From positions 3,712,001 to 3,776,000 of the forward strand of contig OZ250165.1 of the NCBI GenBank assembly GCA_965238005.1: a stretch of DNA of 64,000 nucleotides, in the 5' to 3' direction. How positions within the stretch are numbered: the first letter of the stretch is position 1; every line of letters begins with the position of its first letter. This document shows, piece by piece, positions 28,331-40,573 of the stretch. This DNA comes from Longimicrobiales bacterium. Lineage in GTDB: Bacteria; Gemmatimonadota; Gemmatimonadetes; Longimicrobiales; Gaopeijiaceae. The position numbers and the translations under genes were made by a program. A model generated the notes under the pieces. That model was not told the DNA's origin. It ran no database searches and worked only from the letters and a program-made list of their open reading frames with translations.

Positions 28331-29674
28331 CTACGCTCTTCTCAGTCGGGCCGCGAACGCGCCGTCGAACGCGGATTCCTGGGGCAGCACGTAAAGCTGT
28401 CCCCGCTCGTCCAGATACGCCTCGTTCACGCCCGAGCTCGGCTCCAGTTCGAACTCCGGATGCCGCTCCAGAAACGCGGAAATCCGATCTTCGTTCTCCT
28501 CCGGCTCCAGGCTGCACGTTGAGTACACCAGACGGCCCCCGCTCGGTACTACGCTCGTGCACGCCTCCAGGATGCGCTCCTGAAGTGCCACCAGCTCGTT
28601 CAGCCGCTCGGGAGTGAGCTTCCAGCGTGCGTCCGGATTCCTTCGGAGCGCGCCGGTCCCCGTACACGGCACGTCTAGCAGAGCCATGTCGGCACCCTCC
28701 ACTATGGGGGCAAGGGCGTCCGCCTGCATCACGGACACACTGAAGCCCGGACTCTCCCAAAGCCCGTCGGTGAGCCTTTCCGCATTCTCCCGTACCAACC
28801 GCAGGCGCTCCAGGGACCGGTCCGCCGCCAGCACCACGTTCCCCCGGGCGGCCAGGGCCATGGCCTTCCCGCCGGGCGCCGCGCACAGGTCGGCCACCCG
28901 ATCTCCGGGCTCCGGATCCGCGTACGGCACCACCAGGGCGGCTGCCGGATCCTGCACTACCGACGGGACCTCTGCCATGGCCTCCACGGGGGAGGATTCC
29001 CCGAGGAGCACAACACATCCCGTGCCAGAACCCACCGGCTCGGCCTCGATGCCGGCACCTGCCAGGAGTTCCACGGCCTCCTCGGGAGTTTCCCGGAGAC
29101 ACCGGAGATAGATGGGGGGCACCACATTGTTCGCTTTGACGAGGCGCCCGACCTGTGCCGGGGACCACCGCCCGAGCCAGCGCTCCACGAGCCACCGGGG
29201 ATGGGATCCCCAGGTGGACAGAAACCCCACCGGATCGGCTTCCGCGTCCGGGAAGTGCTCTTCGCCCCCACCCTCGCCGGTGGCGGCGCGAAGGACGGCG
29301 TTCACGAAGCCCGCCACACCCTTGCCCACAGCCGAGCGGGCCAGGTCCACCGCCTGCGACACGGCCGCGTACTCCGGCACGCCGTCCATGTAGAGAATCT
29401 GATACAGACCCAGGCGGAGGGCGTCCCGCACAGCGGGATCCACGGAATCGAGGCCCCTCTGAACCTTCCGGTCCAGCAGATGGTCGAGACGGCCGCGAAG
29501 CCTCTGAACTCCGTACGCCAGCTCGCGGCACCAGCCGCGCTCCCGGGGGTCGAGGGCGCGGGACGAAGCGGCAAAGGCCCGGTCCAACCGTTGACCGCGC
29601 TCGACCGCGCCGAGGATCTCCAGGGCGGCCCGCCGGCCCGGCGTCACCTCTGCCCCGGATCTGGGGGACGTCAC
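28331..29674 (-). CDS. rsmB: 16S rRNA m5C967 methyltransferase
   Basis: NusB-like N-terminal domain, DLCAAPGGK, DVPCTGTG, YSTCS. Confidence 0.95.
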   Translation of the reverse strand: MTSPRSGAEVTPGRRAALEILGAVERGQRLDRAFAASSRALDPRERGWCRELAYGVQRLRGRLDHLLDRKVQRGLDSVDPAVRDALRLGLYQILYMDGVPEYAAVSQAVDLARSAVGKGVAGFVNAVLRAATGEGGGEEHFPDAEADPVGFLSTWGSHPRWLVERWLGRWSPAQVGRLVKANNVVPPIYLRCLRETPEEAVELLAGAGIEAEPVGSGTGCVVLLGESSPVEAMAEVPSVVQDPAAALVVPYADPEPGDRVADLCAAPGGKAMALAARGNVVLAADRSLERLRLVRENAERLTDGLWESPGFSVSVMQADALAPIVEGADMALLDVPCTGTGALRRNPDARWKLTPERLNELVALQERILEACTSVVPSGGRLVYSTCSLEPEENEDRISAFLERHPEFELEPSSGVNEAYLDERGQLYVLPQESAFDGAFAARLRRA

Positions 29675-36484: not shown

Positions 36485-37387
36485 GTGGCTCGTCGGGCGT
36501 CACGGAAAGCGGATTCGATGACCCGAGCGGTGACGATACCGCCCCAGGGGGAGACAATTTATCTCCTCCCGGAGCGGTTCGCTGCACTTTTTTTTGAACG
36601 AACCTACTGCGCACCTCCGAGAACGATCTCGACCCGACGGTTCTGCCGCCGGCCAGCATCGGTGCCGTTGTCGGCCACCGGTTGGGACTCGCCGGCGCCC
36701 TGGACCTCGAACCGTTCCGCGTCGAGACCCGGGAAGTTGGCCAGCAGGTAGTCCCGCACCGCCTGCGCCCGGCGCAGGCTCAGCGCCCGATTATAGGCCT
36801 CCGGCCCCGTGGAATCGGTATGTCCGGTCAGCTGGACGCGCTCGCCCGGCCGGCAGGTGAGAACTCTTCCCACTTCCTGGAGGATCGGGCCGGCCGTGTC
36901 TTCGAGCTCCGCGGAGTCGTTAGCGAAGTTGACGCCGCCGAAGGTGAGGCGTCCCTCTTCCTCGAGTTCCCGCTCGATCTCGCTCACGGGGCACCCGGTC
37001 TCGTCCACCTCGGAGCCGGCTGCGGTGTCGGGGCAGCGGTCGATGCCGTCCGGCACACCATCTCGGTCTCCGTCCAAAGCGCATCCGTCGCCGTCCACGC
37101 GAGCCCCGGGCCGGGTGTTCGGGCAGCGGTCGAGGCCGTCGGGGACTCCGTCGCGGTCGCCGTCGGTGGCGCAGCCGTTTCCGTCCACCTGGGCCCCGGC
37201 CCGAGTGCTCGGACAGCGATCCAGACCGTCGGCCACACCGTCATCGTCCCCGTCGGTGGCGCAGCCGTTCCCGTCTACGCGGGGACTTATATAGGATCGT
37301 AGCAACGTCCCATATTATCGTTTCACCCTCGCGAATACGATAAGAGAGTAGGGAGAAGAGGATTTAGGATTACGCGAGGAGAGAGAT

Positions 37388-38356
37388 ATGGCTGCGCCCG
37401 GTAAATACTTTCGTAAGGGACTTTCGCTAGTAGACATCATCCGGATGTTCCCGGACGACGAGGCGGCGGAGAAGTGGATCGCGGAGTGTCGTTGGGGCGA
37501 GGAGCCTGCTTGTCCTCACTGCGGCGGCCTTGACGTACAGGTGGGGGCGAAACATCCTAGCCAGCCCTACCGGTGTCGCGTAAAGGGCTGCAGGAAATAT
37601 TTCTCCGTCCGTACCGGTACGGCCATGGAGCAGAGCAATCTCGGATATCAGATATGGGCGATAACATGCTATCTGGTCGCGACGGGCCTCAAGGGACAGT
37701 CCTCCATGAAGCTCCACAGGGATCTAGGCGTGACTCAGAAAACCGCGTGGTTCCTAGCTCACCGCATCCGAAAGGCGTGGGAGGGCCAGCAGCACGACTT
37801 CGAGGGACCGGTGGAGGTAGACGAGACCTATGTCGGCGGCTTAGAGAAGAACCGCCACTGGAAGAACCGCACCGGACGTGGGATGGGTCACGGACACTCC
37901 GACAAGACCGCCGTGGCTGGAGTAAAGGATCGGGCGACCAACCGGGTCACCGCACGTGTCATCGAACGGGCCAACAAGCCTACCCTGCAGAGGTTCATCC
38001 GAGAGGTGACCAAGGACGTGTCTGAGGACGGCGCGAAGATCTACACCGACGAGGCCGGTTGCTACGCGGGCCTGCCGAACCATGAGACCGTCAAGCATCG
38101 AGTCGGCCAGTACGTGGACCGCGAAGCACACACAAACGGCATAGAGAGCTTTTGGAGCATGCTCAAGCGCGGCTACCATGGGACCTATCACCTTATGAGT
38201 CCTAAGCACCTGCAGCGCTACGTCAATGAGTTTTCCGGGAGGCACAACATCCGGCCCCTCGATACCATCGCACAGATGAAGTCCATCATCCGGGGTCTAG
38301 AGGGCAAAAGGCTGACCTACCGGGAGCTGACGGCTCCTCCTGATACCTACGCTTGA
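37388..38356 (+). CDS. IS1595-family (ISXO2-like) DDE transposase
   Basis: Zn ribbon CPHC...YRCRVKGC, VEVDETY, IYTDE, TNGIESFWSMLKRG, YVNEFSGRHN. Confidence 0.95.
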   Translation: MAAPGKYFRKGLSLVDIIRMFPDDEAAEKWIAECRWGEEPACPHCGGLDVQVGAKHPSQPYRCRVKGCRKYFSVRTGTAMEQSNLGYQIWAITCYLVATGLKGQSSMKLHRDLGVTQKTAWFLAHRIRKAWEGQQHDFEGPVEVDETYVGGLEKNRHWKNRTGRGMGHGHSDKTAVAGVKDRATNRVTARVIERANKPTLQRFIREVTKDVSEDGAKIYTDEAGCYAGLPNHETVKHRVGQYVDREAHTNGIESFWSMLKRGYHGTYHLMSPKHLQRYVNEFSGRHNIRPLDTIAQMKSIIRGLEGKRLTYRELTAPPDTYA

Positions 38357-38380
38357 CGGGGGCGGACTCCGCGTGATTTT
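38351..38380 (+). promoter_or_regulatory. Putative promoter, motif copy 1 (GCTTGACnGGnGCG-N8-GTGATTT)
   Basis: TTGACG at 38353 overlaps the transposase stop; same motif and spacing as the copy at 39302. Confidence 0.45.
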
Positions 38381-38382
38381 AT

Positions 38383-38536
38383 AGGGGATACGGAGGGTAG
38401 CGGTGTCAACTGACACTCGGAGGAGCATTCTCTGAGCGTTGCCTGTCGAGGACGTCGTCCTCATCTGCCGTACGGTCGTCGACCGATGCTCAAAACAGCG
38501 CGGCCCGGATTGACACTGCTATCCTCCGTATTCTCT
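38383..38536 (+). ncRNA. Candidate structured RNA 1 in the IS1595 cargo
   Basis: 27-bp uninterrupted closing helix (38383-38409 with 38510-38536) including 4 G.U pairs that form only on the + strand; inner helices and hairpins. Confidence 0.55.
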
Positions 38537-38553
38537 CCTACCCCGCATGGCGA

Positions 38554-38829
38554 TCAGGTGTTCCCCGAGTCCCGCCGCTTCTGTTCCTGGTACTCCCGCT
38601 CCCGCTCTAGCCGGTCCTTGTCTTTTTGGGCCTCTTCCTTGACGGTATGCCAGACAAAGTAGCCTAACACGGCTACTACGATCATGACCATGAAGATGAT
38701 AAGTTCCGGATTCGCGATTAAATAGAGGACGCCTACACTCATCATACCGAAGATACCGAGGAGAAGAGCGCCCACGAATGGGGCGGCTATAATGCCTAGA
38801 GCAATGAGCAGGACGACTAGGCAGGGCAT
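38554..38829 (-). CDS. Small membrane protein, IS cargo (about 91 aa)
   Basis: MPCLVVLLIALGIIAAPFVGALLLGIFG... has 2-3 hydrophobic segments and a charged tail. Start uncertain (38829-38892). Confidence 0.6.
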   Translation of the reverse strand: MPCLVVLLIALGIIAAPFVGALLLGIFGMMSVGVLYLIANPELIIFMVMIVVAVLGYFVWHTVKEEAQKDKDRLEREREYQEQKRRDSGNT

Positions 38830-38905
38830 CCGGGGCGAGTCCTGTGTGTGAGGATGCGCCCGGACATGGGTGTCGGGCCATTTGGTCACCACAGCACAGG
38901 AGATC

Positions 38906-39021
38906 GTGCAGGTCCTGCCTATTCGCCCTGCCTAAAGCTCAACGGGAGCTACCCGCGTAGTGCGGCCTTAGACAATACAGGCTGTGTTATTCGGCAGGTA
39001 ACCCGACTCAGGGTCCTGCAC
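38906..39021. ncRNA. Candidate multibranched RNA 2 (possible 5' leader of the membrane-protein gene)
   Basis: GTGCAGG/CCTGCAC and CCTGCC/GGCAGG helices enclose small hairpins (AGCTC/GAGCT, CCGC/GCGG, GCCT/AGGC). Confidence 0.35.
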
Positions 39022-39142
39022 TGTAGTGACAGAGCCAATTTATCATACCTGAAGCTGGGCTGCAACTACTATTGTGTCGGGAGGGTATACGGCGATAATC
39101 TGTTGTACGGACTGACTTTACCAATCCACAGGGAGGCATAGC

Positions 39143-39307
39143 ATGGACGCCGCCGACACCAAGTCAGAACCGGATGAGCTACAGATGCCGGAGCCCATAC
39201 CGGACACGCCTGAAAATATCATGAAGGCGATCCTGGCTACGCCGCCTCGCCGTCCGGAGGATTGGAAGTTCGTGGAGGAGTCCGAGGAGGGGGAGGATGA
39301 AGCTTGA
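39143..39307 (+). CDS. Small acidic Pro-rich protein, IS cargo (54 aa)
   Basis: Below the ORF-track cutoff; RBS GGGAGG; MDAADTKSEPDELQMPEPIPDTPENIMKAILATPPRRPEDWKFVEESEEGEDEA. Confidence 0.7.
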   Translation: MDAADTKSEPDELQMPEPIPDTPENIMKAILATPPRRPEDWKFVEESEEGEDEA

Positions 39308-39330
39308 CAGGAGCGATTATGGGGTGATTT
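39302..39330 (+). promoter_or_regulatory. Putative promoter, motif copy 2
   Basis: Consensus -35 TTGACA at 39304 overlaps the stop of the 54-aa ORF; GTGATTT sits at the same distance as in copy 1. Confidence 0.45.
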
Positions 39331-39339
39331 CGTGAGAAG

Positions 39340-39495
39340 GTAGCCGCAGGGCGGTGTGCTAGCGCCCCGTTCTAGGCGGCTACGGTGGACTCATTGCATA
39401 GGCATCACCTTCCTTTGGTTGGTCACCTGCCTTTCTTCTCCTTTCTGCCCGCCTTGGGTTCTAGGGGCCAGCCGAGCGTATTCTCGGCTGGCCTC
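39340..39495 (+). ncRNA. Candidate sRNA 3: two hairpins bracketing anti-SD-like repeats
   Basis: Hairpins at 39340-39383 and 39464-39495 (G.U pairs favour +). The linker contains ATCACCTTCCTTT, GTCACCTGCCTTT and TTCTCCTTT. Confidence 0.45.
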
Positions 39496-40573
39496 ATCTG
39501 TATCTACCCCGCAAGCTAGGAGTATTCCGCTGAGATGCGGCATGCGATAATGTGGGACGTTGCTACGGCCATATATAATCCCCTCTACGCGGGCTCCGGC
39601 CGGAGTGGAGGGACACTGGTCCGCGTGGTCAGCCACGCCGTCTCGATCCGAGTCGAGCGCACAGCCGCGTGCATCGACGCTGGCGCCCATGGGTGTGTCG
39701 GGGCAGGCGTCCGAGCTGTCGTCTACACCATCCCTGTCGGAATCCTGGCTTCCACTTGCACTCAGGAAGAAGGAGGCGCCCAGCGTGAACCCCCAGCCCC
39801 AGAACGTCTCTTTGGAAAGCGCCGAGCCGGCCAGCGCGGCAGCGGTGTTCGCCAGTGCGTCCGGGACCTGGTGCATTCGGGCCTCAGCCCGAAGCGCGAT
39901 CCTTGGGGTCAGCGAGAACCGCACCCCACCGCCGTACGTCAGCGTGAGGTCGGTCTCGGAGTCGAGTCCCTCGGGGCTCCAGCTCGAAGCTCCCAGGCCG
40001 GCGACGCCGTACGCCTGGATCCGCTCACCGAGCGGGACGTTGTAACCCACCCCAGCGCTGAAGAGCACCAGGTCCAGGTCCACCACACCTCCTGTCTCCA
40101 GCCTCATGTCCAGGGGGAAGTATCCACCCTCGGCATCCACGAAGAGGCCCGAGGCGAAGTTGTAGGCCACGTGGCCTCCGCCGAAGATGTTCCTGGCCGG
40201 ATCGACGAAGACCGAGCTGCTGCCGTCCGGATGGAATTCCGGTTGGTCGTCGAAGACCCCTACGAATGGAGAGATCTCCCATCCTGTGGGAACCCACCCG
40301 CCGGAGTCTTGGGCGGCAAGGGCACTCGGGGGAAGGCGAAGGTCACGGCCAAAGCCGACAGCGCTCGAATCACGGTGGCGATCCTTTCGTGTCCAGTCGT
40401 GTTACCAGATCACGCCTAATTCGCACCTTCAAATATACCTACACCCTCGATCTCCTCCACAGGGGAAAAATGGAAGGGGCATCGGGGAGCACGAAATCCG
40501 CTCAGGACCCGAACGCGTAGTCCCGCACCTCCGCCAGGTTGCGCCGTGACAAGGAACCAGCAGCTTACCTCCC

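Follow-up and report, generated by a model that had tools for sequence, protein, structure and literature searches.

An IS1595-family passenger element of a Longimicrobiales bacterium carries a structured leader RNA with distant kinship to sRNA-Xcc1 and a conserved microprotein

The stretch of DNA analyzed here (the window; 64,000 nucleotides of a Longimicrobiales bacterium, contig OZ250165.1 of assembly GCA_965238005.1, positions 3,712,001 to 3,776,000) contains an insertion sequence (IS) of the IS1595 family, in which about 1.2 kb of cargo follows the transposase gene. Two small open reading frames (ORFs) diverge from each other in this cargo, at 38554-38829 on the minus strand and at 39143-39307 on the plus strand, as an earlier note made from the sequence alone had proposed, and between them sits a conserved structured RNA which that note overlooked and which is the main subject of this report. 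The principal features of the element are the following (aa, amino acids; TSD, target-site duplication; TIR, terminal inverted repeat).

37274..37281, no strand: left TSD copy, TCTACGCG; identical 8-mer on both flanks, excision restoring the host ORF
37282..37320, plus strand: left TIR, beginning GGGACTTATATA; inverted pair of 39 nt, 85% complementary
37388..38356, plus strand: IS1595-family DDE transposase of 322 aa with an N-terminal zinc ribbon; Pfam and NCBIfam profiles
38554..38829, minus strand: passenger ORF of 91 aa, hydrophobic over its N-terminal two-thirds and with a charged tail, an orphan; ORF list
38870..39033, minus strand: structured leader RNA, expanded relative of sRNA-Xcc1; covariance model (118 bits), pair counts and folding (z-score -3.7)
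39037..39042, minus strand: -10-like box TAAATT, 6 nt upstream of the first base of RNA helix P1; read from the sequence, with a family-wide box count
39143..39307, plus strand: microprotein of 54 aa from an IS-associated family with the core PEPIPDTPENI..L.TPP; family of 40 proteins, 21 of 80 transposase loci
39545..39583, minus strand: right TIR, its reverse complement beginning GGGGATTATATA; inverted-pair search
39584..39591, no strand: right TSD copy, TCTACGCG; identical 8-mer on both flanks

The element looks like an intact, recently acquired, single-copy insertion sequence of the IS1595 family that carries passengers. Its 39-nt ends are 85% complementary, TCTACGCG is repeated on both sides, and removal of the element together with one TSD copy yields an open minus-strand frame of 461 aa with thrombospondin-type repeats and an OmpA-like C-terminus, in agreement with the earlier description of an intact element with TIRs and an 8-bp TSD. 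Only one full copy is present in the 4.84-Mb one-contig genome, the remaining matches being transposase genes of 66-73% identity, and the G+C content is 0.51-0.63 in the element versus 0.63-0.75 in its flanks. Contigs assembled from four DNA runs, representing samples of two studies, carry an identical element at the same site; an empty-site joint was not found in these contigs, in which breaks and depth differences at the junctions are uninterpretable. In the contigs of the second study the differences sit in the flanks, the element itself being identical. The interrupted host gene, which encodes an OmpA-like outer-membrane protein with thrombospondin-type repeats, lies on the minus strand in two parts (36604-37281 and 39592-40170), and because it is split by the insertion it is presumably inactive in this strain.

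The transposase matches PF12762 (2e-35), the zinc-ribbon profile PF12760 (27.4 bits, cut-off 25.4) and NF033547 (176.1 bits, cut-off 75). D145, D221, E253 and K260 are invariant in an alignment of the window protein with 12 relatives, and are predicted from this conservation to be the catalytic D, D and E with the K/R residue seven positions after the glutamate; among the zinc-ribbon cysteines, the same alignment shows C42 and C63 to be invariant and a conservation of at least 90% for C45 and C68. All the features expected of the IS1595 family were found, namely a DDE transposase, a zinc ribbon, D/D/E with K/R at +7, and TIRs with an 8-bp TSD. Furthermore, the ends of the window element and of seven of the eight relatives with recognizable ends have the form GGG(A/G)nTTATA, the eighth match beginning with TTATATA, and all of them carry cargo. 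We take the ISNwi1-like subgroup of ISfinder ("transporter IS") to be characterized by ends of the form GGnnnTTAT and by extra genes inside; by this definition the window element would resemble the passenger-carrying members in its zinc-ribbon DDE transposase, its ends starting GGGnnTTATATA, its 8-bp TSD and the extra genes between transposase and right end. The claim of the earlier note that an IS1595 element carries passengers is thus borne out by the transposase profiles, the ends, the TSD and the cargo genes.

When the cargo was compared by BLAST with 401 genomes of the phylum, only two parts of it gave matches, the region 38845-39020 and the 54-aa ORF. The alignment of the former displays invariant sequence blocks alternating with variable stretches. 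A protein-coding origin was considered for this block and is ruled out by the lengths of the matches (112-191 nt) and by its covarying paired columns. Since the closing helix, if taken from the plus strand, contains C-A mismatches that correspond to G-U pairs on the opposite one, the reading direction is from 39030 to 38870 on the minus strand, with the following parts.

39030-39014 with 38901-38885, minus strand: closing helix P1, 17 bp; indexed by hand
39007-39000 with 38879-38872, minus strand: pseudoknot-like helix GUCGGGUU / GGCCCGAC; indexed by hand
38998-38993 with 38919-38914, minus strand: helix P2; indexed by hand
38955-38943, minus strand: hairpin CGGG-UAGCU-CCCG; indexed by hand
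38858..38865, minus strand: downstream partner GUCCGGGC, able to pair with the RNA 3′ strand GCCCGAC as an alternative hairpin; read from the sequence, with family-wide pairing energies

RNAalifold returned a poor structure from a MAFFT alignment, a consequence of variable helices aligned without regard to structure, and the helices were then derived by hand and tested by pair counts. P1 spans 10 bp or more in 41 of 43 copies, whose sequences in this helix are unrelated, and the two misses are parsing failures of the script, one of them in a copy with 22 bp. In a 43-sequence alignment, with the pseudoknot included, 97.1% of 885 cells are paired, against 27-52% when the partners are slid, and compensatory changes occur in 11 of the 21 pairs, values that none of 500 shuffles reached. 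The helix GUCGGGYY/GGCCCGRC, which lies outside the model, is paired in 98-99% of cells and shows two changes from G-C to A-U. The RNA further has an outer helix of 17-22 bp and an inserted hairpin in which GGGUAGCUCCC is invariant. In the literature searched, the conserved motif strings of the RNA turn up only as unrelated primers.

BLASTN of the element against 80 loci encoding related transposases revealed no similarity in cargo or ends, and for this reason a covariance model was needed to follow the RNA; it was built from 13 copies. Overall the model gave at least 125 matches, in related genomes, in metagenomes and in IS1595 elements from at least five phyla. The RNA occurs in 8 of 101 genomes of the bacterial family, the window's own included, and in 14 of the 80 related transposase loci, which by record title belong to Longimicrobiales, Binatia, Alpha-, Gamma- and 'Delta'-proteobacteria and Vicinamibacterales. 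Metagenome loci, fetched with a core pattern, contributed at least 82 matches in 80 loci, the metagenome figures referring to the matches listed. Inverted ends are recognizable in 8 of the 14 RNA-bearing transposase loci, and they enclose the RNA in all eight. Of 25 loci from the bacterial family, 9 have a transposase no more than about 1.5 kb from the RNA, and among the metagenome matches listed one is present within 4 kb in 17 of 80 loci. The orientation of the RNA to the transposase differs between two distant transposase types; the RNA always faces the cargo ORF. Because its orientation is fixed relative to the cargo ORF and variable relative to the transposase, the RNA is regarded as part of the cargo and not of the transposition machinery. 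Most copies are not beside an IS1595 transposase. A BLAST search of a plasmid collection with the RNAs of the window and of locus L103 gave no match.

The genome of the window contains three copies of the RNA. One of the other two (29250-29395, locus L109) has other transposase genes on either side and stands ahead of a small membrane protein, and the second (736223-736340, locus L110) is a short variant followed by a collagen-like lipoprotein. Short forms of the RNA (112-125 nt) are devoid of the inserted hairpin and score best with the Rfam model RF02221. Three identical IS1595 units with another transposase type are found in one genome of the family (L112, L118 and L120), in the order transposase, RNA, lipoprotein on one strand, and two of these copies are identical over more than 2.5 kb. 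In three loci (L015, L012 and L121) the second transposase type has at its 5′ end, on the opposite strand, a small basic ORF that is K-rich and continues with TDREIM..FGKR. Several loci contain two nearby copies of the RNA (L010, 1524-1677 and 1775-1921; L026, L138, L153, L170, L201 and L147; also L198). Most of these pairs are arranged in tandem on one strand, but those of L198 diverge.

As to the identity of the RNA, Rfam searches of the interval 36500-40500 and of the isolated RNA returned nothing beyond chance-level matches (sR53, DUF805b, ftsZ-DE). For the other copies, RF02221, the model of sRNA-Xcc1, is the best and nearly the sole Rfam match, at 23-33 bits and always under the gathering threshold of 53 bits. 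Reciprocally, our covariance model matches true RF02221 sites at 12-20 bits; these come from control phage and prophage contigs fetched with the RF02221 core pattern, where 16 of the 20 loci searched are true members (53-78 bits). The sub-threshold matches obtained in the two directions coincide in position. With respect to membership of sRNA-Xcc1, the core sequence and helices are present and the gathering threshold is not reached. Both RNAs have a closing helix GUCGGG/CCCGGC (GNCGGG.../...CCCGGC) followed by AC(C), an internal loop of AAUACAA and GAAUA with two inner helices, and a place on mobile elements just upstream of a gene. The alignment to RF02221 equates the pseudoknot helix of our RNA with the closing helix of sRNA-Xcc1, the AAUACAA and GAAUA strands being common. 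In contrast, the window RNA is about 160 nt long and sRNA-Xcc1 87; a 5′ extension of the former forms a 17-22-bp helix with a stretch that is a small hairpin in sRNA-Xcc1, turning the closing helix into a pseudoknot, and the extra inserted hairpin with GGGUAGCUCCC is a further difference. The cargo also differs, exported proteins in the branch of the window RNA as opposed to antirepressors or symE in sRNA-Xcc1, and the hosts belong to other phyla. Judged from its core sequence and helices, the window RNA is an expanded, uncatalogued branch or relative of the sRNA-Xcc1 family. The "undescribed system" of the earlier note accordingly holds insofar as the RNA is not an Rfam member by threshold, and fails insofar as it is a distant relative of an RNA already described.

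A published account of sRNA-Xcc1 (PMC2996969) describes an 88-nt RNA of Xanthomonas, seen as a single Northern band of about 100 nt and with mapped ends. It lies upstream of symE in integron cassettes of Xanthomonas, according to a preprint (bioRxiv 10.1101/2025.06.18.660453), and upstream of an ORF6N gene in APSE phages, according to another (bioRxiv 10.1101/2020.03.17.996009). In the viral contigs retrieved here (L252-L331) the sRNA-Xcc1 core is found a few tens of nucleotides upstream of antirepressor-type genes (AntA, P22_AR_N, KilA-N, Bro-N, ORF6N and Rha) for 46 of 66 distinct downstream ORFs, 45 of them above the Pfam cut-off; in phages, sRNA-Xcc1 looks like a leader of antirepressor genes.

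The window RNA is the 5′ leader of the ORF encoding the 91-aa membrane protein, its 3′ end being 40 nt from the ORF start. In the family as a whole, TAnnnT is found 2-8 nt before the first P1 base in 57 of 87 RNAs and in only 47 of 870 random windows. A same-strand downstream ORF with a signal peptide, a lipobox or a membrane segment follows 70 of 109 distinct RNAs, as compared with 54 of 493 random positions; the procedure favors such ORFs and the test of export is rough, the random positions having been run identically. The gap between RNA and start codon has a median of 42.5 nt, a Shine-Dalgarno-like sequence is present in 59 of the 70, and a U-run follows the RNA in 6 of 111 cases only. 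That the RNA keeps a fixed place before cargo ORFs suggests a role in controlling the cargo gene rather than in the toxin-antitoxin-like or host-translation-modulating module put forward in the earlier note. In four metagenome loci (L137, L157, L173 and L177) the RNA stands before ORFs that resemble family-25 glycosyltransferases by sequence, which are envelope enzymes and not exported proteins.

We hypothesize that the RNA is a cis-acting leader which gates its cargo gene within an intact IS1595 passenger element, and consider this somewhat more likely than not, the mechanism being deduced from sequence. The 3′ strand GGCCCGRC would pair either with the upstream GUCGGGYY, thereby closing the core, or with a complement located just downstream, and these two mutually exclusive folds would set the expression of the cargo gene at the level of translation, of RNA stability or of processing; in addition, the leader might give rise to a stable small RNA. 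Pairing of the GGCCCGRC strand with the next 30 nt has a mean energy of -12.9 kcal/mol, versus -9.6 kcal/mol for shuffled sequences and -8.7 kcal/mol for far windows (n=92), and reaches -9 kcal/mol or lower in 79 of 92 cases versus 35 of 92. Since the downstream pairing surpasses that with shuffled or distant sequence, the 3′ strand has two exclusive partners, which we take as a sign of a conformational switch. In this the RNA resembles leaders of the riboswitch type, in which an mRNA likewise begins with a conserved, covarying fold and one strand has two alternative partners. Unlike in those leaders, the genes downstream share only export and no pathway, and the alternative hairpin does not form a terminator or hide the ribosome-binding site.

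Several observations weigh against such a gating leader. The alternative hairpin does not cover the Shine-Dalgarno sequence, as judged by eye in printed examples, nor is it a terminator. The 3′ strand of P1 pairs with the cargo ribosome-binding site at -14.6 kcal/mol as compared with -12.9 kcal/mol for shuffles, and a cognate site (-18.8) is little better than non-cognate ones (-16.4), with a median rank of 16 of 50. By the rough test, 39 of the 109 downstream ORFs are not exported and include HU/IHF-like proteins, a methylase and glycosyltransferases, and consequently no single functional theme hints at a ligand. The alignment used for the pair counts was fitted to helices P2-P4, although not to the pseudoknot, and because the sequences are kin the pair statistics overstate independence. 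Regarding kinship, the window RNA itself has no match to RF02221 even at E <= 10, and sRNA-Xcc1 was described (PMC2996969) as a discrete 88-nt trans-acting small RNA.

That last description leads to a first alternative, in which the RNA would be a stand-alone small RNA acting in trans, as sRNA-Xcc1 was first described, with the downstream ORF merely following it. The single band of about 100 nt and the ends at 88 nt reported for sRNA-Xcc1 (PMC2996969) favor such a molecule, as do the -10-like box that the RNA has of its own, the stable hairpin directly after it, which could mark a 3′ end, and the existence of tandem copies with no ORF in between. On the other hand, the median gap of 42.5 nt to the start codon leaves no room for another promoter, a U-run is found in 6 of 111 cases only, and the strand and position of the RNA relative to the ORF are constant; we regard this alternative as unlikely.

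An equally unlikely explanation is that the leader is excised and then controls its own mRNA by antisense pairing, in the manner of c4 of phage P1 and IsrK of Salmonella, with a key that pairs with the cargo ribosome-binding site and with an upstream decoy. Phage c4 occupies the same place, before antirepressor genes, and works by key-and-lock complementarity. True sRNA-Xcc1 precedes antirepressor-type genes in the 46 of 66 distinct phage contexts given above (45 above the Pfam cut-off), the 5′ strand of P1 is often Shine-Dalgarno-like, and its 3′ strand is pyrimidine-rich, with an anti-Shine-Dalgarno-like tetramer in 26 of 44. However, the pairing of the P1 strand with its cognate ribosome-binding site is only slightly above the controls, and Rfam yields no C4 or isrK match for 36500-40500 or for the isolated RNA. 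The c4 RNA of phages P1 and P7 and IsrK therefore resemble the window RNA as structured RNAs in the leader of a following gene on a mobile element, but have no sequence or Rfam relation to it, and their key-and-lock complementarity is not clearly present in the window RNA.

Two further proposals fare much worse. That the RNA serves transposition, whether through convergent transcription that runs into the transposase gene or by assisting the enzyme as a cofactor, is suggested by its strong association with IS1595 transposases and, in the window, by transcription from its promoter heading towards the 3′ end of the transposase gene; this is nevertheless very improbable, since the orientation to the transposase varies with element type (co-directional downstream, convergent or divergent) while that to the cargo ORF is constant, no transposase lies within 4 kb in 63 of 80 metagenome loci among the matches listed, and relatives of the RNA occur in phages and integrons. 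A toxin-antitoxin-like maintenance module formed by the RNA and the small membrane protein would fit the small, hydrophobic cargo ORF and the position of sRNA-Xcc1 before symE in Xanthomonas cassettes (bioRxiv 10.1101/2025.06.18.660453), but is hardly credible given that the RNA is a sense leader, upstream of the ORF on the same strand and not antisense as a type I system demands, that the cargo of most relatives is a lipoprotein or secreted protein of 100-800 aa, and that the 91-aa protein is devoid of relatives.

Concerning the two small proteins, the 91-aa ORF has a G+C pattern at third codon positions that fits coding (scored over the containing 112-aa ORF); no relative other than itself was found among 47 candidates, and there is no Pfam or NCBIfam match above cut-off. 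The 54-aa microprotein, in turn, is a separate, conserved accessory of these elements. Its family comprises 40 proteins of 37-101 aa (E <= 0.001, the window's own included) with 13 invariant alignment columns (PEPIPDTPEN, L, T and P), and tblastn detects the gene in 21 of the 80 loci with related transposases, in most cases near the right end and on the same strand as the transposase gene. No Pfam or NCBIfam profile matches the family, and the Atlas gives unnamed clusters only. In most members the core is preceded by a K/R-RGRP stretch, in place of which the window copy and its two closest relatives have an acidic stretch. RGRP is, we assume, the core of an AT-hook, and because most relatives carry it our guess is that the family has a role at the A+T-rich ends of the element.

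Insertion sequences are usually thought to carry little besides a transposase. The element itself is ordinary-looking, and its interest is the portable leader RNA and the conserved, unnamed microprotein: a folded RNA and a very small conserved protein accompany the element in at least five phyla, the RNA precedes unrelated cargo genes, mostly for surface or secreted proteins, and one RNA core is common to IS1595 elements, integron cassettes and prophages, with an expanded branch that the Rfam model misses entirely. In the literature searched, there is no description of a conserved RNA or of the 54-aa protein as part of IS1595 passenger elements, and nothing connecting IS1595 with a structured RNA; ISNwi1 is mentioned there in two papers on unrelated subjects. 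Knowledge of how the leader acts would reveal the way in which mobile elements govern genes that they have newly brought into foreign hosts, and would allow a better annotation of the RNA family and of passenger-carrying IS1595 elements. More tentatively, we may speculate that the sRNA-Xcc1 superfamily is a portable RNA switch which gates transferred genes with no host-specific factor and which, together with the 54-aa protein, would constitute a minimal regulatory kit of the transposon. Should this be the case, the switch would have been placed by transposons, integrons and phages before envelope proteins, symE and antirepressors, respectively, and it might respond to some universal signal or act on the mRNA to which it belongs.

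The remainder of the cargo includes two segments, 38357-38553 and 39308-39544, that the earlier note had taken for its RNA component, each behind an ORF stop with a promoter motif. Their features are as follows.

38383..38536, plus strand: element-specific long hairpin, imperfect, separating the transposase gene from the convergent cargo gene; arms of 27 nt, 85%
39308..39544, plus strand: element-specific spacer with one local 11-bp hairpin (39466-39493); folding versus shuffles, no relatives

On the plus strand the first segment has a minimum free energy of -97.1 kcal/mol (z -5.26, none of 200 shuffles as good), and on the minus strand its folding z is -3.37; the second is not significantly structured (z -1.55, 15 of 200 shuffles as good). 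In the 200 nt 3′ of the transposase stop of 80 related elements the median z is -0.14, with values below -3 in 4 of 80, and in 1.12 Mb of related loci no relative of either segment was found except one 30-nt match. A consensus scan of 37200-39700 returned no sigma-70-type promoter, against an expectation of 1.1 from shuffles, and a single weak terminator-like site (38357-38371). It is therefore most doubtful that the segments are functional non-coding RNAs of the cargo: the first does fold far better than its shuffles and GCTTGAC is common to both ORF stops, but neither segment is conserved in the related elements, the second is not significantly structured and no consensus promoter was found. 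The repeated arrangement of stop, promoter motif and structured segment was not confirmed in the form proposed, and the check that the note proposed, conservation of these helices in related elements, came out negative. The idea that the two segments are paralogous copies was also discarded, since aligning them globally (z 2.2, a score equalled by 7 of 300 shuffles) shows them to be weakly alike at best. The heptamer GCTTGAC overlies the stop codons of both the transposase (38350-38356) and the 54-aa ORF (39301-39307), with GTGATT about 20 nt further on in each, an arrangement that may be due to chance. We read both segments as element-specific spacers, the hairpin of the first possibly being an insulator between convergent genes or a terminator. 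The view of the cargo as RNA-rich is right in that a conserved structured RNA and a microprotein exist, although the RNA lies elsewhere (38870-39033, minus strand): about half of the 1.2 kb is coding sequence or leader RNA, and the other half is element-specific spacer.

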